A stretch of 5,762 nt of DNA from a virus. Position 1 is the stretch's first letter. Every line of letters starts with the position of its first letter. Shown here piece by piece: positions 1 through 5,762 of the stretch. Location of the stretch: positions 1 through 5,762 of IMG/VR virus record IMGVR_UViG_3300045988_001067; one strand, written 5' to 3'. The notes beneath the pieces were generated by a model. The model searched no databases. It saw only the letters and a program-made list of their open reading frames with translations, and was not told where the DNA came from. Made by a program: the position numbers and the translations under genes.

Positions 1-79
1 GTCCGAAAAGCAAGTTTTGACCCACAGTTTCTAAAGAGCCTGTCACAAGGAGCACTTGAAGGAACAGAAGTAGATATCA
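1..79. repeat. Terminal redundancy: 1..79 is identical to 5684..5762 (circular-genome assembly overlap; unit length 5683 nt)
   Basis: Base-by-base reading shows gtccgaaaagcaagttttgacc...gaagtagatatca at both ends. The VP3 reading frame runs across the junction without a stop. Confidence 0.97.
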
Positions 80-219
80 CCGAATTTCCGCAAAACATTC
101 ACGAGTATCATCGCATGATAGCGACCGCACAAGCAAACGCAATGAAGCTTGAAGAGCTGCAAAAAATGGCAGCAGAAGAAGCAAAAGCAAAACCTGAAGC
201 AAAGGAGGAAGAAAAGTGA
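1..219 (+). CDS. VP3: Internal scaffolding protein VP3, C-terminal part (continuation of 5504..5683 across the circular junction; whole protein 132 aa)
   Basis: Frame 1 is open from nt 1 to TGA 217..219 (VRKASFDPQFLKSL...KLEELQKMAAEEAKAKPEAKEEEK*) and is in phase with the ORF starting at ATG 5504 once the 79-nt overlap is removed. It sits immediately upstream of VP1, as in gokushoviruses. It has the acidic ESYSDECDIKSIV motif typical of gokushovirus VP3. Confidence 0.7.
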   Translation, partial: VRKASFDPQFLKSLSQGALEGTEVDITEFPQNIHEYHRMIATAQANAMKLEELQKMAAEEAKAKPEAKEEEK

Positions 220-1892
220 ATCGAAACAATGAACGGCACTTCAACCAAATTCCAGAAATGAAAGCAAGTCGAACACGGTTCAACCGTGACCAGACAATTC
301 TCACGACATTCGATTCAGGAAAGCTGATTCCATTCTACGTTGACGAGGTATTGCCGGGCGATACCTTCAACGTAAACACCTCAGCAATCATCCGAATGAC
401 GACACCGAAATATCCGGTGATGGACGATGCATTCATCGACTTTTACTATTTCTATTGTCCTAACAGAATTTTGTGGGACGACTTCAAACAGTTCATGGGA
501 GAAGCTGAAAGCACGCCATGGATGCCAACGAAAGAATACAAAGTGCCAAAAATAACTATAAACGGAACGCAATCAAACGGATATCCATACGAAGCATCAA
601 TTCTAGACTATATGGGTGTACCAACAAAAGTAAAAGCAAAATTTTCAATAAACGCCTTACCAATTCGCGCTTATGTCATGATTTGGAACGAATTTTTCAG
701 AGACGAAAACGTAGACAATGCAGCAGTATGGAAAAGTGACAGTCAAGACGTGGCATACCAAGACACGCAAAATGAAAATAAAATAGAAGACAACCTTAGA
801 AACGCAATCAACGGAGGACGATGCTTACCGGTAAACAAGTTCCACGACTACTTTACAAGCTGTCTGCCTTATCCGCAGCGTGGACCGGAAGTAACGCTGC
901 CGATGGAAGGTAATGCACCGGTAGGAATGTACAAAAACCTCGAACTTACAGAATACGGAACAACAAGCGGAAAAAACTCAATCTACTTCAACCAAAAAGC
1001 CACAGATTCTTACATACCAGGAATCACGAACAACCAATCAGGAAACAGAATTTCGCAGGTAGCGGGAAGCTCGAGCGCTACAGCTCATGTAGCAGATGTG
1101 GCATATCTAGGCGCCGACCTAAGCGCAGTAACCGCAGCAACCATCAACGACTTAAGAAAAGCCATAGCAGTACAGCAGTACTACGAAGCGCTCGCACGAG
1201 GCGGCAGCCGATACCGCGAACAGGTACAAGCACTGTGGGACGTGACCATCAGCGACAAAACGGCACAAATCCCGGAATATCTTGGCGGTGGACGCTATCA
1301 CGTCAACATGAACCAAATCGTACAGACAAGCGGGCAGCAGACCGAAACGGACACACCTATCGGTGAAACTGGTGCAATGTCAGTAACGCCAATCAACGAA
1401 AGCAGCTTTACAAAATCTTTTGAAGAGCACGGATTTGTAATTGGTGTCTGTTGTGTACGGCACAATCACAGTTACCAGCAAGGCTTGGAACGTTTCTGGA
1501 GCAGAGAAGACAGGCTGGACTACTATGTACCGCAGTTCGCAAATCTGGGCGAACAGCCTGTAAAAAAGAAAGAAATCATGCTCACCGGCACAGCAACGGA
1601 CGAAGAAACGTTCGGCTATCAGGAAGCCTGGGCAGACTACAGGATGAAGCCTAACCGGGTATCCGGTAAAATGCGAAGCAACGCAACGGGCACGTTGGAT
1701 TTCTGGCACTATGCAGACAACTATTCAACCGTGCCAACGCTGTCACAGGCGTGGATGGCAGAAGAAAAAACGGAGATCGCAAGAACGTTGATCGTGCAGA
1801 ATGAACCGCAATTTTTTGGTGCAATCCGAGTAGCAAACAAAACCACAAGACGGATGCCGTTGTACAGCGTACCGGGCTTGTACAAACTGTAA
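216..1892 (+). CDS. VP1: Major capsid protein VP1 (phiX174 F-like, gokushovirus type), 558 aa
   Basis: Motifs FDSGKLIPFYVDEVLPGDTF near the N-terminus and INDLRKAIAVQQYYEALARGGSRYREQVQALWDV mid-protein are hallmark Microviridae capsid motifs. AGGAGG at 203..208 lies 7 nt before GTG 216. In-frame ATG 258 is a less likely alternative start, because the residues upstream of it resemble the N-terminus of gokushovirus VP1. Confidence 0.95.
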   Translation: MNRNNERHFNQIPEMKASRTRFNRDQTILTTFDSGKLIPFYVDEVLPGDTFNVNTSAIIRMTTPKYPVMDDAFIDFYYFYCPNRILWDDFKQFMGEAESTPWMPTKEYKVPKITINGTQSNGYPYEASILDYMGVPTKVKAKFSINALPIRAYVMIWNEFFRDENVDNAAVWKSDSQDVAYQDTQNENKIEDNLRNAINGGRCLPVNKFHDYFTSCLPYPQRGPEVTLPMEGNAPVGMYKNLELTEYGTTSGKNSIYFNQKATDSYIPGITNNQSGNRISQVAGSSSATAHVADVAYLGADLSAVTAATINDLRKAIAVQQYYEALARGGSRYREQVQALWDVTISDKTAQIPEYLGGGRYHVNMNQIVQTSGQQTETDTPIGETGAMSVTPINESSFTKSFEEHGFVIGVCCVRHNHSYQQGLERFWSREDRLDYYVPQFANLGEQPVKKKEIMLTGTATDEETFGYQEAWADYRMKPNRVSGKMRSNATGTLDFWHYADNYSTVPTLSQAWMAEEKTEIARTLIVQNEPQFFGAIRVANKTTRRMPLYSVPGLYKL

Positions 1893-1902
1893 GAAAGGAG
1901 GA

Positions 1903-1928
1903 AGCCCGGAGAAATCCGGGCTATTTTT
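1903..1928 (+). terminator. Rho-independent terminator between VP1 and VP2
   Basis: Perfect 8-bp stem agcccgga (1903..1910) / tccgggct (1915..1922) with a GAAA tetraloop, followed by ATTTTTAA (T-run 1924..1928). Confidence 0.75.
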
Positions 1929-1930
1929 AA

Positions 1931-2788
1931 ATGGGAGCATTATCAGGATTCTTAACAGCACTAAACGTAGCGGGAAACGTGGCAAACACAATCGGAACTT
2001 TTGCAGGAGCAGCAAAAAACATCGCTGGAGCTTTTGGCGGATACGGACAAGAAGGCAACAGCCAAAGCCAGGGCGGAAGCACAAGTCAGGGCGGTGGACA
2101 TTCCGAAAGCGGAAGCCAGTCGGGCACAAACGTGCAACAGGTCAGTGACTGGCTCAAGCAGGCATACGCATACCAAGGGCAAGAAGCAGCCATGCAGGGC
2201 AAATACAACAGTCAAAGTATGCTTAAACAGATGGGCTATAACACGCTACAAGCAATCATGCAAGGCGTATACAACCACATCGAGAACAATGTAGCAATGA
2301 ACTACAACAGCGCAGAAGCACTAGCAAACCGTGAATGGCAAGAGCACATGAGCAGCACAGCATATCAAAGAGCCGTAGAAGATATGAAAAAAGCGGGACT
2401 TAACCCGATTCTAGCATTCTCAAACGGTGGAGCAAGCACACCAGGCGGAAGCGCAGGAACAATCAGCGGTGCAAGTATGGGACTAGCAAGCAGCAGCGCA
2501 CTAGGCGTAAGCCGAAGCGGAGGATTCGTGCCTAACGCATACGAAAGCAGCAGCTGGAGCAAAAGCGAATGGTACAATGCAGCACAAAGCTGGCAGCAGA
2601 TGCTCAGTTCAACGCATATGACACCATACGGACTACAACGAGTCTTAACAGAAATCGGAGAAGACACAAGCAAAGCAATTGACAAAAACGTACCAAAGAA
2701 AAACGACAAAAAAAGCAACTATCAAGCGCCGCAGGACAAAACAGGATCCTACGGAGAAAAAAGAAAGCCGGGTGACTACTTAAGGTGA
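1931..2788 (+). CDS. VP2: Minor capsid / DNA pilot protein VP2 (phiX174 H-like), 285 aa
   Basis: It lies directly after VP1. The N-terminal half is Gly/Ser/Gln-rich. The conserved block STAYQRAVEDMKKAGLNPILA is typical of microvirus pilot proteins. An in-frame TAA at 1928..1930 fixes ATG 1931 as the first possible start. Confidence 0.85.
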   Translation: MGALSGFLTALNVAGNVANTIGTFAGAAKNIAGAFGGYGQEGNSQSQGGSTSQGGGHSESGSQSGTNVQQVSDWLKQAYAYQGQEAAMQGKYNSQSMLKQMGYNTLQAIMQGVYNHIENNVAMNYNSAEALANREWQEHMSSTAYQRAVEDMKKAGLNPILAFSNGGASTPGGSAGTISGASMGLASSSALGVSRSGGFVPNAYESSSWSKSEWYNAAQSWQQMLSSTHMTPYGLQRVLTEIGEDTSKAIDKNVPKKNDKKSNYQAPQDKTGSYGEKRKPGDYLR

Positions 2789-3804
2789 GTTGCTACAAGC
2801 CATTAATAAGGCTGTACAACCCTAACGACAAAAACATTAGCGGGAAGGTGTATTCACTCTCCCGCTTTTCTCAGTTAGCGGGAAAACAGCTAAAATATGA
2901 AGATTTGATGTATAGAAGAGATGTAATGCTGATACCATGCGGGCAGTGCATCGGATGCAGAATAAGACAAAGGGAGGACTGGACAACACGAATAGAATTA
3001 GAAGCACGAGATTATCCAAGAGAAGAAGTTTGGTTTATCACACTCACATATGATGACGATCACGTACCGGGCATGATAGTAAACACAGGCGAAATCATGC
3101 GAAAAGTACAATACGTCTGGAAACCGGGAGAGAAGAGCCCTGAAAGCGTCCAAACGTTAATGTATACTGACGTTCAAAAGTTCTTAAAACGTCTCAGAAA
3201 GGCTTATAAGGGCAAATTACGCTATTTTGTGGCGGGAGAATACGGAGAACAGACAGCTAGGCCGCATTATCATATGATATTATACGGATGGACGCCAACA
3301 GATCTAGAACACCTATACAAAATACAACACAACGGATATTTCAAAAGTAAATGGCTAGCAGACCTATGGGGCATGGGTCAAATACAGATAGCGCAAGCAG
3401 TACCGGAAACATACAGATATGTTGCAGGATACGTCACAAAAAAAATGTACGAAATAGACGGAAAGAAAGCTAACCAATACTACGAGTTAGGTCAACAAAA
3501 ACCATTCGCGTGCATGAGCTTAAAACCCGGACTAGGAGACCACTATTACCAAGAACACAAAGAAGAAATATGGAGACAAGGATACATCCAATGTACAAAC
3601 GGAAAGAAAGCCCAAATTCCACGTTATTATGAAAAAATGATGGAAAATGAAAACCCACAAAGGTTGTGGAGAATTAAACAGAACAGACAAGCAACAGCCA
3701 TAGCAGAAAACAGGCTAAAGTATGAAAATGCAGACTTTGAAGAGCAATGTAAGACAAAAGAAAGAGTAATCAAAAAGCAAATGAAGAAGAGAGGGACACT
3801 CTAA
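2785..3804 (+). CDS. VP4: Rolling-circle replication initiator VP4 (HUH endonuclease, phiX174 A-like), 339 aa
   Basis: It has motif I FITLTYDD, the HUH motif RPHYHMILYG (cat tat cat at 3265..3273) and the double-tyrosine motif YVAGYVTKK (compare phiX A protein YVAKYVNK). It also has the N-terminal Cys cluster PCGQCIGCR. GTG start 2785 overlaps the VP2 stop (GTGA). Confidence 0.93.
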   Translation: MSCYKPLIRLYNPNDKNISGKVYSLSRFSQLAGKQLKYEDLMYRRDVMLIPCGQCIGCRIRQREDWTTRIELEARDYPREEVWFITLTYDDDHVPGMIVNTGEIMRKVQYVWKPGEKSPESVQTLMYTDVQKFLKRLRKAYKGKLRYFVAGEYGEQTARPHYHMILYGWTPTDLEHLYKIQHNGYFKSKWLADLWGMGQIQIAQAVPETYRYVAGYVTKKMYEIDGKKANQYYELGQQKPFACMSLKPGLGDHYYQEHKEEIWRQGYIQCTNGKKAQIPRYYEKMMENENPQRLWRIKQNRQATAIAENRLKYENADFEEQCKTKERVIKKQMKKRGTL

Positions 3805-3814
3805 CGGTGTCACC

Positions 3815-3847
3815 TAGCCCAGTACCTATCAAGTAAGTACTGGGCTA
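3815..3847 (+). other. Perfect hairpin (11-bp stem, 11-nt loop) just after the VP4 stop
   Basis: tagcccagtac (3815..3825) is the exact reverse complement of gtactgggcta (3837..3847). There is no downstream T-run, so it is not a classical terminator. Confidence 0.8.
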
Positions 3848-3890
3848 ATGTCGTCTAAAGACTCCATGTATCACACTATTCAGTGATTCA

Positions 3891-3918
3891 AAGGGGTTGA
3901 CTTAAAAGTCAACCCCTT
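3891..3918 (+). other. Perfect hairpin (11-bp stem, 6-nt loop)
   Basis: aaggggttgac (3891..3901) pairs with gtcaacccctt (3908..3918), with loop ttaaaa. No T-run follows. Confidence 0.8.
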
Positions 3919-3925
3919 GCGTCAC

Positions 3926-3941
3926 GCCCCAGTCTTGGGGC
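3926..3941 (+). other. Short GC hairpin (6-bp stem, 4-nt loop)
   Basis: gcccca (3926..3931) pairs with tggggc (3936..3941), with loop gtct. Confidence 0.6.
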
Positions 3942-3947
3942 TGCCGC

Positions 3948-3999
3948 TGTACGCACGTGCGCACATGCGCGTAAGCGCGCACGCGCACACGCGCGCATA
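3948..3999. repeat. GC-rich alternating purine-pyrimidine tract (two blocks of 26 and 25 nt, CG/CA type), potentially Z-DNA or cruciform forming
   Basis: 3948..3973 and 3975..3999 alternate Y/R without exception, separated only by one extra A (3974). The tract contains the palindrome cgcacgtgcg (3952..3961) and the inverted pair atgcgcg (3965..3971) / cgcgcat (3992..3998). It runs directly into the AT-only palindrome ataatattat (3997..4006). Confidence 0.85.
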
Positions 4000-4098
4000 A
4001 TATTATATAACTTGTTGTAGACGTAGTAGTAGGCAATGTGGAAAAGTTGAAAAGTACTAAAATTTAACGCTAAAGCGTAAATAAAAAGCAAAAAACAC

Positions 4099-4211
4099 TG
4101 TTGAAAGATTTGTTGAAAACTTGTTGAAATGTTGAATGTTCGTCAAAATGACGAAAACCTTTGTGCAACTTTATGTTGAAAACCTGTTGAAAGTGTTGAA
4201 AGTGTTGAAAA
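4099..4211 (+). repeat. Iteron-like array: 8 exact direct copies of TGTTGAA(A) in two clusters of four
   Basis: Copies start at 4099, 4111, 4122, 4130 and at 4174, 4185, 4194, 4203. The last three form a 9-nt tandem, tgttgaaag x3 with one mismatch. Degenerate copies lie upstream: tgttgtag at 4013, tgtggaaaa at 4037 and gttgaaaa at 4046. All copies share the same orientation. Confidence 0.9.
4139..4155 (+). other. Inverted repeat at the centre of the iteron array (7-bp stem, 3-nt loop)
   Basis: ttcgtca (4139..4145) pairs with tgacgaa (4149..4155). Confidence 0.7.
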
Positions 4212-4221
4212 CGCGCACAGC

Positions 4222-4261
4222 GCTAAAAAAGAAACCATTTTCGTGAAGACACGAAAATGGT
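4222..4261 (-). terminator. Intrinsic terminator oriented for the minus strand (12-bp hairpin followed by a T-run on the - strand)
   Basis: accattttcgtg (4234..4245) pairs with cacgaaaatggt (4250..4261), with loop aaga. On the - strand the stem is followed by ttcttttttagc (complement of 4222..4233). On the + strand no T-run follows. Confidence 0.55.
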
Positions 4262-4328
4262 GATTAGCCGAGCTCCGCGTGCGCTCCGCACGGCAAGGCG
4301 CTAAAGCGCCATTCAAACCAAAAAGCAA

Positions 4329-4357
4329 TTGACAGCCGACAAAAAAAATGATATCAT
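4329..4357 (+). promoter_or_regulatory. Near-consensus sigma70/sigmaA promoter with extended -10
   Basis: TTGACA (4329..4334), a 17-nt spacer, then TATCAT (4352..4357) preceded by TGa (4349..4351). An A-rich tract lies upstream. The first gene behind it is the peptidase: SD AAGGAG at 4391..4396 and ATG at 4404. Confidence 0.7.
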
Positions 4358-4403
4358 CTAAGATAGAAAGCAAAACGCCATGAACGAATAAAGGAGCAAA
4401 AGC

Positions 4404-4796
4404 ATGGAAATCAAAGCGTATGTAGCAGAAGAGCAAGGAAACGAACAAGTTACAGACCACTTCAAAGTAAAAGAATTTGCATGCAAAGACGGGACACCAA
4501 TCGTATTCGTAGACGATTATTTAGCAGTCATTCTAGAAATCGCAAGAAAAAAAATCAATAAACCAATCATCATCACAAGCGGATACCGCACAATAAGCCA
4601 CAATAAAAAAGTAGGAGGAGCAAAATACAGCTACCACACAAGAGGCATGGCAGCTGACATCAGAGCGAACGGAGTAACACCAAAAGAGCTCGCAAAAGTG
4701 CTAGACAGAATCGTACCAAACAGTGGCGGTATCATCGTGTATGACAATTGGGTACATTTCGACACAAGAAATGAAAAATACAGAAAGGGGGTGTAA
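4404..4796 (+). CDS. Zinc metallopeptidase of the LAS / peptidase M15 superfamily (M15_3 / YcbK-MepK-like cell-wall peptidase), 130 aa; candidate endolysin
   Basis: It has N-terminal DHFKVKEFACKDG, then SGYRTISHNKKVGGAKYSYHTRGMAADI (H78-x6-D85; cac at 4635..4637 and gac at 4656..4658) and WVHFD (H118; cat at 4755..4757). This is the canonical H-x6-D...H zinc-ligand pattern of this family. There is a strong SD and no signal peptide or TM segment. Confidence 0.85.
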   Translation: MEIKAYVAEEQGNEQVTDHFKVKEFACKDGTPIVFVDDYLAVILEIARKKINKPIIITSGYRTISHNKKVGGAKYSYHTRGMAADIRANGVTPKELAKVLDRIVPNSGGIIVYDNWVHFDTRNEKYRKGV

Positions 4797-4798
4797 AA

Positions 4799-4915
4799 AT
4801 GGCACTTATTTCCATTAAAGACGTCAAACAGGCAATTCGACTAATGATGCAGATTCTCGAAAAACTTGACGAGATTTATCACGCACTGCACGATGACGGC
4901 GAAAAAAAGGAGTAA
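4799..4915 (+). CDS. Small hypothetical protein, 38 aa, predicted amphipathic helix (absent from the supplied ORF track)
   Basis: ATG 4799 lies 2 nt after the peptidase stop and is preceded by aaaggggg (4785..4792). Translation is MALISIKDVKQAIRLMMQILEKLDEIYHALHDDGEKKE*, with stop TAA 4913..4915. Its 3' end carries the SD of the next ORF. Confidence 0.45.
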   Translation: MALISIKDVKQAIRLMMQILEKLDEIYHALHDDGEKKE

Positions 4916-4919
4916 AGTC

Positions 4920-5147
4920 ATGATGCACAAAACATGGAACGTAAGAGACGAGACCAAAGAAGCACTAGAAGAGCTGCTCGCACGAAAATACAAAGAAATT
5001 GATGGCAATTATAAAATGCTTAGAAAAGTGTCAAACATAGAAGATGCTAAAAGACTAGTAGACGAAATTTGGCAAATGAAAAACTTTACAAACGCCATCG
5101 AATTAGAGCTAATGCGAAGGGAGTACACTAATGGCACAGCATCGTAA
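4920..5147 (+). CDS. Hypothetical protein, 75 aa, helical and charged
   Basis: Same frame as track ORF 4866..5147, but ATG 4920 is preceded by AAGGAG (4907..4912) at 7-nt spacing, whereas 4866 is a TTG without an SD. I recognise no motif. Confidence 0.55.
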   Translation: MMHKTWNVRDETKEALEELLARKYKEIDGNYKMLRKVSNIEDAKRLVDEIWQMKNFTNAIELELMRREYTNGTAS

Positions 5148-5253
5148 GAAGATGAACGGCGCAAAAGACAAGCGAATGTTCAACGTAACCGCACGAAAAA
5201 CCAAAGCTATCAACCTCAGCCAGAAGCCTATGCGCGGTGGCATCCGACTGTAA
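5131..5253 (+). CDS. VP8: Small basic DNA-binding protein (gokushovirus ORF8/VP8, phiX174 J-like), 40 aa (absent from the supplied ORF track)
   Basis: Translation is MAQHRKKMNGAKDKRMFNVTARKTKAINLSQKPMRGGIRL*. It is highly basic with the C-terminal PMRGGIRL signature seen in gokushovirus small DNA-binding proteins. SD aagggag (5117..5123) lies 7 nt before the ATG. It overlaps the preceding ORF by 17 nt. Confidence 0.7.
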   Translation: MAQHRKKMNGAKDKRMFNVTARKTKAINLSQKPMRGGIRL

Positions 5254-5271
5254 AAAAAGGAGAAACAAAAA

Positions 5272-5511
5272 ATGAAACACAATTACTACGGCATTTGGGA
5301 CAGAGTGGCAAAGTGCTATGCATGGGTAGGCGAAAACAGAAGCGACGCAACGTTTGCACGGATGTGCAACGTAATGGCAAAGGACGAAAAAACTTTCATC
5401 GGGCAGAGCCCAGAGGACTACACCGGATTTAGGCTGGCAGTGTTTGAAGACGAGCTCGGCACGTTCACGAACGACACTGAAAAGGTATGGGAGGGAAAGC
5501 CGAATGAATAA
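5272..5511 (+). CDS. VP5: VP5-like non-structural protein (phiX174 C-like function proposed for gokushoviruses), 79 aa
   Basis: Size, its position just upstream of VP3, and the pattern Y.IWD.VAK.Y....A.R......D....I...PEDY..F.LA.F.D..GTF resemble gokushovirus VP5. SD AAGGAG (5257..5262) lies 9 nt before the ATG. Confidence 0.6.
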   Translation: MKHNYYGIWDRVAKCYAWVGENRSDATFARMCNVMAKDEKTFIGQSPEDYTGFRLAVFEDELGTFTNDTEKVWEGKPNE

Positions 5512-5762
5512 ACGATATGAAGAAGGGCGAGAGCCCTTCTTTTCTGAATCAGGCGAAACCATGCGAAAGCAATACGTCTGGACAAAGGACGAAAAAGGGC
5601 AAGAAGTGCTGCAAGAGACCGAACCAATCGACATCCAACAGGAAATTGAAAGCTATTCGGACGAATGCGACATCAAAAGCATCGTCCGAAAAGCAAGTTT
5701 TGACCCACAGTTTCTAAAGAGCCTGTCACAAGGAGCACTTGAAGGAACAGAAGTAGATATCA
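5504..5762 (+). CDS. VP3: Internal scaffolding protein VP3, N-terminal part (runs off the window end and continues at nt 80 of the window after removing the 79-nt overlap)
   Basis: ATG 5504 is the first ATG after in-frame stop TGA 5444..5446. gggaggg (5489..5495) lies upstream. It overlaps the VP5 stop by 8 nt (ATGAATAA). The frame is open to the window end and in phase with 1..219. Confidence 0.7.
   Translation, partial: MNKRYEEGREPFFSESGETMRKQYVWTKDEKGQEVLQETEPIDIQQEIESYSDECDIKSIVRKASFDPQFLKSLSQGALEGTEVDI
5520..5545 (+). terminator. Terminator-like hairpin inside the first codons of VP3
   Basis: agaagggc (5521..5528) pairs with gcccttct (5533..5540), with a GAGA loop, extendable by a5520-t5541. 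It is followed by TTTCT. The T-run is shorter than at 1903..1928. Confidence 0.4.

Follow-up and report, generated by a model that had tools for sequence, protein, structure and literature searches.

The stretch of DNA analysed here, referred to throughout as the window, is the 5,762-nt IMG/VR virus record IMGVR_UViG_3300045988_001067 (positions 1 to 5,762), a microvirus that represents a complete or near-complete gokushovirus genome with its genes on the plus strand. We examined its sole long gap, which spans 599 nt (3805-4403; 10.4% of the 5762 nt) between VP4, the gene for the replication protein (Rep), and a gene for an M15 peptidase. The gap contains a hairpin adjoining VP4, here called hp1, and a core of about 215 nt whose repeats resemble the boxes bound by the bacterial initiator DnaA. 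The genes that frame the region are as follows.

216-1892, plus strand: VP1
1931-2788, plus strand: VP2
2785-3804, plus strand: VP4 (Rep; Pfam REP_ORF2-G2P), stop codon at 3802-3804
4404-4796, plus strand: M15 peptidase (Pfam Peptidase_M15_3), ATG at 4404

Several small plus-strand genes follow the M15 gene. At the other junctions, genes are spaced by no more than 38 nt or overlap, as an earlier note made from the sequence alone had observed; its coordinates for the gap agree with the VP4 stop and the M15 start codon, and every cis element it had listed was located where it had placed it.

The gap is not an assembly artefact, a concern which that note had raised, as its architecture recurs in more than 100 independent GenBank and IMG/VR assemblies. 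In a BLAST search of GenBank phages, dozens of gut gokushoviruses (human, pig, monkey, mink, dog and raccoon) matched the block; their records carry no annotation in the gap. We further compared 80 IMG/VR relatives with VP4 88-94% identical, measuring the gap whenever VP4 and M15 could both be located on a genome of unit length (L numbers are our handles for individual genomes and loci). Its length was 377-990 nt in 75 of the 76 relatives with both genes placed, the exception being L046 with 81 nt. L013, L039 and L043 (contigs of 8.8-10.9 kb) were excluded from these statistics; they carry window-type VP4, far exceed one genome in length and are probably concatemers or chimeras of related genomes. 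Comparison with the relatives identified the block as a constant feature of the clade that is internally mosaic.

A protein-coding reading of the gap was rejected, as its open reading frames (ORFs) had no match in PHROGs and the frames are not kept open across relatives. The two minus-strand ORFs, dismissed as non-coding by the earlier note, are open in just 5 of 75 and 23 of 73 relatives. Rfam and tRNA scans of the gap returned nothing relevant, the sole Rfam match being a sub-threshold hit to mir-297 on a GC-rich tract.

The core and the chromosome origins of the probable host family

The core comprises an AT-rich stretch, TAG repeats, a G/C spacer, tandem boxes and two box arrays, arranged as follows (z denotes the folding score relative to shuffled sequences).

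3997-4210 (about 215 nt): core
3997-4017, plus strand: AT-rich stretch, a putative DNA unwinding element (DUE), 18 of 21 positions A/T; the window reads ATAATATTATATAACTTGTTG
4018-4032, plus strand: DnaA-trio-like repeats TAG ACG TAG TAG TAG, followed by the spacer GCAA to 4036
4037-4053, plus strand: proximal tandem DnaA-box pair, TGTGGAAAA then GTTGAAAA, in sequence TGTGGAAA-A-GTTGAAAA
4099-4137, plus strand: left distal DnaA-box array, three exact TGTTGAAA and one TGTTGAAT, spaced 9-11 nt
4139-4155: central inverted repeat TTCGTCA-AAA-TGACGAA between the box arrays, z -5.0
4174-4210, plus strand: right distal DnaA-box array, four exact TGTTGAAA, spaced 9-11 nt; 100% tandem-repeat match with period 9

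The first proximal box, TGTGGAAAA at 4037-4045, has the reverse complement TTTTCCACA, which fits the DnaA-box consensus TTWTNCACA. A spacer of 45 nt separates the proximal pair from the distal arrays, each of which holds four boxes. The motif TGTKGAAA occurs in eight exact copies, all on the plus strand and all within 4037-4210, where 0.56 would be expected (0/200 shuffles). Across the clade, cores average about 9.5 boxes spaced by 8, 9, 11 or 12 nt, and essentially all copies lie within the core. The repeat consensus is T-G-T-(T 86% / G 14%)-G-A-A-A-(A/G), and some copies are perfect DnaA boxes, TGTGGATAA or TTTTCCACA. The central repeat consists of two inverted copies of TGNCGAA, the Spo0A-box consensus. 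A possible Spo0A-box reading (of TGTTGAA in the boxes and TGACGAA in the central repeat) has two points against it: the boxes contain no CGAA core, and the central repeat differs by lineage, its place being taken elsewhere by unrelated small hairpins.

No other genome region that we compared between lineages retains its nucleotide sequence as well as the core. Core identity is 69-84%, whereas the VP4 and VP1 genes of the same lineages reach only 63-67%, with amino-acid identities of 39-48% for VP4 and 43-49% for VP1. The core is most invariant from the AT-rich element, which has its most conserved columns, through the TAG trios to the two proximal boxes. The succession of (TAG)3, 1-8 nt and two boxes was found in 75 of 103 clade genomes and in 0/2000 shuffles, and no DnaA-box cluster was detected in 122 other gokushoviruses. 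Within the AT-rich stretch lies AACTTGTTG (4009-4017), a near-invariant, phage-specific motif that matches the hairpin loops of SpV4 (ATTACTTGTTATA) and of L207 and L208 (CTTGTTGTA), which makes it a candidate for a second VP4 recognition motif.

To identify bacterial counterparts, 185,579 genomes, one per bacterial species, were scanned for three adjacent copies of TGTTGAAA. More than 120 loci were recovered against about 0.1 expected, many of them from Oscillospiraceae, Ruminococcaceae or Ruminococcus. The genes dnaA and/or dnaN were present in 10 of 120 loci, and the largest arrays lay exactly between the two; Pfam confirmed the flanking genes (DnaA, DNA_pol3_beta). These origins follow the order AT-rich element, (TAG)4-5, GGG(G), TGTTGAAA-C-TGTKGAAA and, some 40 nt of spacer further on, more box arrays. 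Window positions 3997-4210 present the same element order and orientation as these Oscillospiraceae and Ruminococcus origins, among which are the following.

L339, 1936-2279: (TAG)4-5 GGG then boxes in the dnaA-dnaN region; AT-rich element placed as in the window relative to the TAG repeats
L344, 6511-7584: as L339
L354, 1641-2075: a variant of the TAG series; AT-rich element placed as in the window
L392, 4985-5390: as L339
L420, about 4932-5628: (TAG)4-5 GGG then boxes in the dnaA-dnaN region

The box logos of phage cores (n=909) and origins (n=138, from six Oscillospiraceae or Ruminococcus dnaA-dnaN regions) are near-identical, flanks included, and their variable T/G position is divided 0.86/0.14 and 0.85/0.15, respectively. 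As an observation in its own right, these bacterial origins use a variant DnaA box, TGTTGAAAA (85%) or TGTGGAAAA (15%), beside (TAG)4-5 GGG trios, and we saw no description of an origin architecture with this variant box for Oscillospiraceae.

A recent donor was sought by BLAST of the gap against the bacterial origin loci and rejected, as only repeat-level matches were returned. We read the core not as a recent transfer but as a case of mimicry or of ancient capture that selection has maintained. The M15 peptidases of gokushoviruses are closest to those of Faecalibacterium (PMC3394797), a member of Oscillospiraceae. The phage promoters are of sigma-70 type with GGAGG Shine-Dalgarno sites, and both points fit Oscillospiraceae as the probable host family.

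The Rep hairpin, strand polarity and variable elements

hp1 lies directly past the VP4 stop codon.

3807-3847 (hairpin 3815-3847), minus strand: hp1, GTGTCA followed by an 11-13 bp hairpin, DNA fold z -5.2

Its minus-strand loop reads TACTTGAT (3828-3835), the sole exact copy in the window, and ATCAAGTA when read on the plus strand. GTGTC(A/G) followed by a hairpin was found in 101 of 103 unique clade genomes, mostly 2-10 nt past the VP4 stop, in a few up to about 100 nt past it, and just upstream of the VP4 start in L004 and L129. The stems differ wholly between lineages (TAGCCCAGTACC, GTGGGCCTAATCC, ACCGGCACAAG, CTGGCCCAAG), while the loop stays constant as ATCAAG(T/A)A or AGACAAG(G/T)A. In alignment A1, 94% of cells are paired and 7 of 13 pairs show compensatory changes (0/500 shuffles). 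The element that the earlier note had listed as one hairpin among several therefore has the 10-15 bp, compensating stem of a Rep hairpin.

A homologous hairpin was found among 125 further gokushoviruses fetched with VP4 profiles, 94 of which, Chlamydia phage Chp2 included, carry the loop motif on the coding strand. Its typical form is TAGCACAGTTAC-CTTACTTGAT-GTAACTGTGCTA; in Chp2, TCTACTTGAT forms the loop of the strongest hairpin. In SpV4 (L203), which stands outside that survey, the motif is likewise on the coding strand; its strongest hairpin has the loop ATTACTTGTTATA and begins 6 nt past the rep stop, thus adjoining the rep gene as hp1 does. The hp1 stem is homologous to the subfamily form (TAGCCCAGTAC versus TAGCACAGTTAC) and the loop octamer is identical, an exact copy of the motif (C)TACTTGAT. 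In contrast to the coding-strand placement of the other gokushoviruses, the hp1 motif lies on the gene-complementary strand, and a uniform scan placed it there in 100 of 103 clade genomes. Judged by stem and loop, hp1 is homologous to the pan-Gokushovirinae hairpin, which is most plausibly the putative VP4 nick or origin site. The loop motif also resembles the phiX174 origin, CAACTTG^ATA. The literature consulted, mostly outside subscription journals, held no experiment or paper that defines the gokushovirus hairpin or its function.

The flipped TACTTGAT hairpin recurs in four contigs of the L271 lineage. Their VP4 is 51-53% identical to that of coding-strand relatives and 31% identical to the window VP4, which indicates that the hairpin was flipped there independently of the window clade. 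In every flipped genome, the difference A minus T at four-fold degenerate sites is reversed.

Window clade, 103 genomes: A minus T +0.20 to +0.46
L271 lineage, 4 contigs: A minus T +0.33 to +0.35
94 coding-strand genomes: A minus T median -0.18, only L332 above +0.2
Chp2 VP1 gene: T.51, A.26
SpV4 VP1 gene: T.65, A.28

Genes of the host family are without such bias (A.25, T.33), and the horizontally acquired M15 gene (4404-4796), at A.69 and T.06, has drifted to the phage's own strand bias. In phiX174, the T-rich strand that carries the origin motif is the virion strand. If the T-rich TACTTGAT strand is likewise the virion strand here, the clade packages the antisense strand. We therefore suggest, tentatively, that some microviruses may be negative-sense, with Rep nicking, and the capsid packaging, the gene-complementary strand; these would be the gut clade and, as an independent case, the L271 lineage. 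Three observations speak against antisense packaging: L332 has its hairpin on the coding strand yet an A minus T of +0.33, L294 is a further exception, being A-rich with a weaker hairpin, and the candidate site AACTTGTTG lies on the coding strand. The mutation spectrum of rare variants, which was aimed at the packaged strand, offered too few polarised four-fold sites. Two other genomes are likewise exceptions to the link between hairpin orientation and skew: in phiMH2K (L201), which is without a TACTTGAT hairpin, the coding strand is A-rich (A minus T +0.20), and L330 is A-rich with no clear hairpin. In L279, the IMG/VR contig ends in a 55-bp perfect palindrome (4215-4272), probably an artefact of assembly or amplification.

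The orientation of hp1 relative to the genes is constant, whereas that of the core varies, giving three arrangements.

Arrangement 1 (most genomes): hp1 on the plus orientation, then the core in plus orientation
Arrangement 2 (L002, L008, L016, L019, L030, L034, L037): hp1 plus, the GC-rich tract, then the core inverted in place
Arrangement 3 (L004, L129): core inverted, hp1 plus, then VP4

The DUE end of the core adjoins hp1 in two of the three arrangements, being 20-30 nt away in the simplest lineages and meeting hp1 from the opposite side in L004 and L129. A fixed hp1 and a variable core fit a strand-specific hairpin combined with a bidirectional, origin-type module that acts at the duplex level. 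The inverted cores form a sequence cluster of their own (86% identity among themselves, 73% to direct cores, maximum 80%), which identifies the inversion as old and fixed rather than as an active switch. An invertible, phase-variable switch was accordingly rejected, as inverted cores are no more than 80% identical to any direct core and no recombinase gene is present.

The remaining elements of the gap lie on either side of the core.

3891-3918: hp2, z -7.3
3926-3941: small GC hairpin, z -1.7, not significant alone
3945-3998: GC-rich alternating purine/pyrimidine (R/Y) tract, a feature of composition, z 0.0
4234-4261, minus strand: hp3, a perfect 12-bp hairpin with a T-run on the minus strand only, z -9.3, optional
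4278-4310: GC2 block, two short GC hairpins including GGCGCTAAAGCGCC, z -1.5
4329-4357, plus strand: sigma-70-type promoter, TTGACA, 17 nt and extended -10 TGnTATCAT, 11 of 12 matches, the best in the window
within 4329-4403, plus strand: Shine-Dalgarno AAGGAG ahead of the M15 ATG at 4404

Of the structures named in the earlier note, hp1, hp2, the central repeat and hp3 fold beyond chance; the small GC hairpins (z -1.3 to -1.7) are not significant singly, and the R/Y tract, which folds no better than its shuffles, was rejected as a structured hairpin. The minus-oriented terminator proposed there, hp3, does have its T-run on the minus strand, yet it is a mere match to consensus. That note had also not recognised hp1 as the family Rep hairpin with a flipped loop, the occurrence of inverted cores, or the optional nature of hp2 and the GC tract.

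Together, hp2, the small GC hairpin and the GC tract (3891-3998) form an optional insert between hp1 and the core. It is missing in L088, L096, L105, L112, L160 and L163, and hp2-like hairpins with other stems occur in L144, L151 and L180. Junctions read directly in relatives place the boundary of the in-place core inversion at the GC tract. Among 77 gaps, hp1 was present in 76, the box arrays with the central repeat in 76, the AT block in 74, GC2 in 73, the GC tract in 57, hp3 in 43, the window-type promoter block in 14 and hp2 in its window form in 11. GC2 travels with the downstream promoter and, in L004, lies about 20 nt past the annotated VP4 stop; relatives have equivalent TTGACA/TATAAT promoters. 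In most relatives (window versus L005-L084), VP4 is about 92% identical and M15 about 62% (60-65%), a contrast that places a recombination or module boundary inside the gap.

In L016, L030, L034, L037, L002 and L019, whose gaps measure 700-990 nt, a further small gene of about 60-70 aa lies between GC2 and M15, with its own TTGACA/TATAAT promoter and GGAGG Shine-Dalgarno site (e.g., L037, gap positions about 560-790); the window gap is without it. Elsewhere in the window, an ORF of 34 aa (115-216) has a match to PHROG 24309, a virion structural protein, that is confined to the C-terminal end (102-135 of 136); a gene of the circular genome is probably interrupted by the ends of the linear window.

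Proposed replication control and rival explanations

We consider it likely, with a probability of roughly 0.6, that the gap controls replication by recruiting host DnaA, which would open the duplex beside the Rep hairpin. What is observed is how the region is built and conserved, together with hp1 covariation and the agreement with origins of the host family; DnaA binding, unwinding and coupling to VP4 are predicted from them. Core conservation and hp1 covariation also bear out the proposal of the earlier note that the block is a dense, selected region for replication or regulation rather than spacer DNA.

In the proposed mechanism, hp1, directly past VP4, would be the likely VP4 nick site from which rolling-circle replication starts. 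With the phage DNA in its double-stranded replicative form (RF), host DnaA would bind the proximal pair and the distal arrays, oligomerise onto the TAG trios and melt the AT-rich element. Melting would expose the Rep site, either the hp1 loop or AACTTGTTG, as single-stranded DNA (ssDNA) or a hairpin to VP4, an HUH nuclease that needs ssDNA, and/or would load the host helicase, so that RF replication would be tied to the host initiator. Downstream, the GC hairpins and the strong promoter would drive the acquired operon of the M15 lysis enzyme.

Several points weigh against this interpretation. About 140 nt of GC hairpins part hp1 and the DUE in window-type genomes, and in the seven relatives with an inverted core the DUE lies about 400 nt from hp1; these distances imply that tight physical coupling is not essential. 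The fourth trinucleotide in the TAG series, ACG, is no trio. That TGTTGAAAA is a DnaA box of Oscillospiraceae is something we infer from its position and its mixing with TGTGGAAAA, and no long high-identity match to the sampled bacterial origins was obtained, the best being 72% over 123 nt. The host itself is likewise one that we infer, and the strict core pattern gave no gokushovirus or prophage copies in the 185,579 genomes.

The boxes might instead act as a DnaA sink or a DnaA-controlled switch that binds DnaA without opening the DNA, through datA-like titration that would perturb initiation in the host, or through a promoter that responds to the DnaA level, either that of the M15 operon or, in L004-type genomes, that of VP4. 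About ten boxes per genome on a multicopy RF would suit this role, as would a promoter 120-290 nt downstream of the boxes and a module found in both orientations, before or after VP4, and invariably in an intergenic region ahead of a gene. Yet the AT-rich element, the trios and the proximal pair, which neither titration nor transcription control would need, are the most invariant parts, and the layout copies the unwinding side of oriC, beyond a mere box cluster, so that we regard such a sink or switch as rather unlikely. It is improbable that the repeats are iterons bound by the phage's own VP4, with hp1 as the corresponding 'nic' site, in the manner of the pMV158 'bind' locus or the iterons of CRESS-DNA viruses. 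Their consensus is constant over VP4 lineages that are 39-100% identical and is indistinguishable from the origin boxes of bacteria that have no VP4; no such repeats occur in the 122 other gokushoviruses with a homologous VP4, and the TAG trios and G/C spacer would be left without a role. The iteron view would account for a hairpin with distal direct repeats in the pMV158 layout, for the TTGTTG common to the repeats and a phage-specific motif, AACTTGTTGTAG, and for the recurrence of AACTTGTTG within the array (4118-4126).

Mosaicism invites the further explanation that the gap is selfish or neutral DNA, be it a miniature mobile element, a module captured from a plasmid, a scar left by recombination at a module boundary or an active invertible switch: the gap coincides with the boundary between VP4 and M15 identities, the core occurs in three arrangements, and hp2 and the GC tract come and go. 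We find this very improbable, because the core outconserves essential genes, occurs once per genome and is accompanied by no transposase, recombinase or dif site, while the separate cluster of inverted cores marks the inversion as old and fixed. The plasmid-like module suggested in the earlier note found no support in particular. Only four chance-level matches of 23-28 nt were obtained among 72,556 plasmids, no plasmid-type initiator gene is present, the only Rep being the HUH-type VP4, and the supposed iterons match chromosomal DnaA boxes. A dif/XerCD site was also sought and rejected, as no match to the degenerate consensus was found at up to 3 mismatches and there is no XerD arm; GCGCATAA resembles a XerC arm only and is not conserved in relatives.

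Significance and comparison with known systems

Microviruses are textbook rolling-circle phages, thought to need only Rep and host elongation factors, and the packaged strand is assumed throughout the family to be of positive polarity. Gut gokushoviruses are very abundant but uncultured; we know of no origin defined for them, and of their hosts only as guesses at uncultured bacteria. Within the same body of literature, work on Microviridae describes no DnaA boxes, DnaA-trios, iterons or module of this kind; an origin module of DnaA type within an ssDNA phage that replicates by rolling circle is thus undescribed there for this family. If the proposed role is true, the core beside the Rep hairpin would offer a concrete, testable origin for gut gokushoviruses, and the phage would depend on, or manipulate, the host initiator. 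Such a link to DnaA could explain persistence in a carrier state or coupling to the host cell cycle. It would also provide a sequence-based host predictor pointing to Oscillospiraceae and Faecalibacterium-like bacteria, key gut commensals, and would put on record the variant DnaA box and the trio architecture that these bacteria use. The polarity of the packaged strand, in turn, becomes directly testable through the flipped hairpin and the reversed skew.

Among plasmid systems, the double-strand origin of pMV158 pairs a nic hairpin with distal direct repeats, the 'bind' locus, and the gap similarly has a hairpin and repeats no more than a few hundred nucleotides apart. A second likeness is to plasmid origins at which DnaA boxes serve alongside the plasmid's own initiator and host DnaA acts as an accessory at the origin of a foreign replicon. 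Unlike both, the core has trios and DnaA boxes of host type in place of Rep iterons, and it comes with no plasmid initiator gene and no similarity to plasmid sequence.

The closest parallels are chromosomal. The basal unwinding system (BUS) of B. subtilis and other bacteria consists of tandem DnaA boxes, DnaA-trios and an adjacent AT-rich element, with at least three trios (3'-NAN-5', consensus 3'-GAT-5') lying no more than 16 bp from a box (PMC8287927). In B. subtilis incC, proximal and distal subregions of boxes are distinguished, the distal boxes raising the local DnaA concentration (PMC6669920). The window has TGTGGAAAA at 4037-4045, which fits the box consensus within a phage logo equal to the host-origin logo, TAG TAG TAG at 4024-4032, 4 nt from that box, and, beyond the trios, the AT-rich element at 3997-4017 with 18/21 A/T. 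The core thus shares its parts with BUS and incC: trios, here three in a row and perfect, a proximal pair of tandem boxes, and distal arrays, here at 45-160 nt. It differs in location, as it lies between VP4 and M15 instead of beside dnaA/dnaN at a chromosome origin, in a 5.8-kb rolling-circle ssDNA phage where it adjoins a Rep hairpin. It differs further in that its AT-rich element carries the near-invariant, phage-specific AACTTGTTG, that it occurs in either orientation, and that its binding by DnaA is a prediction.

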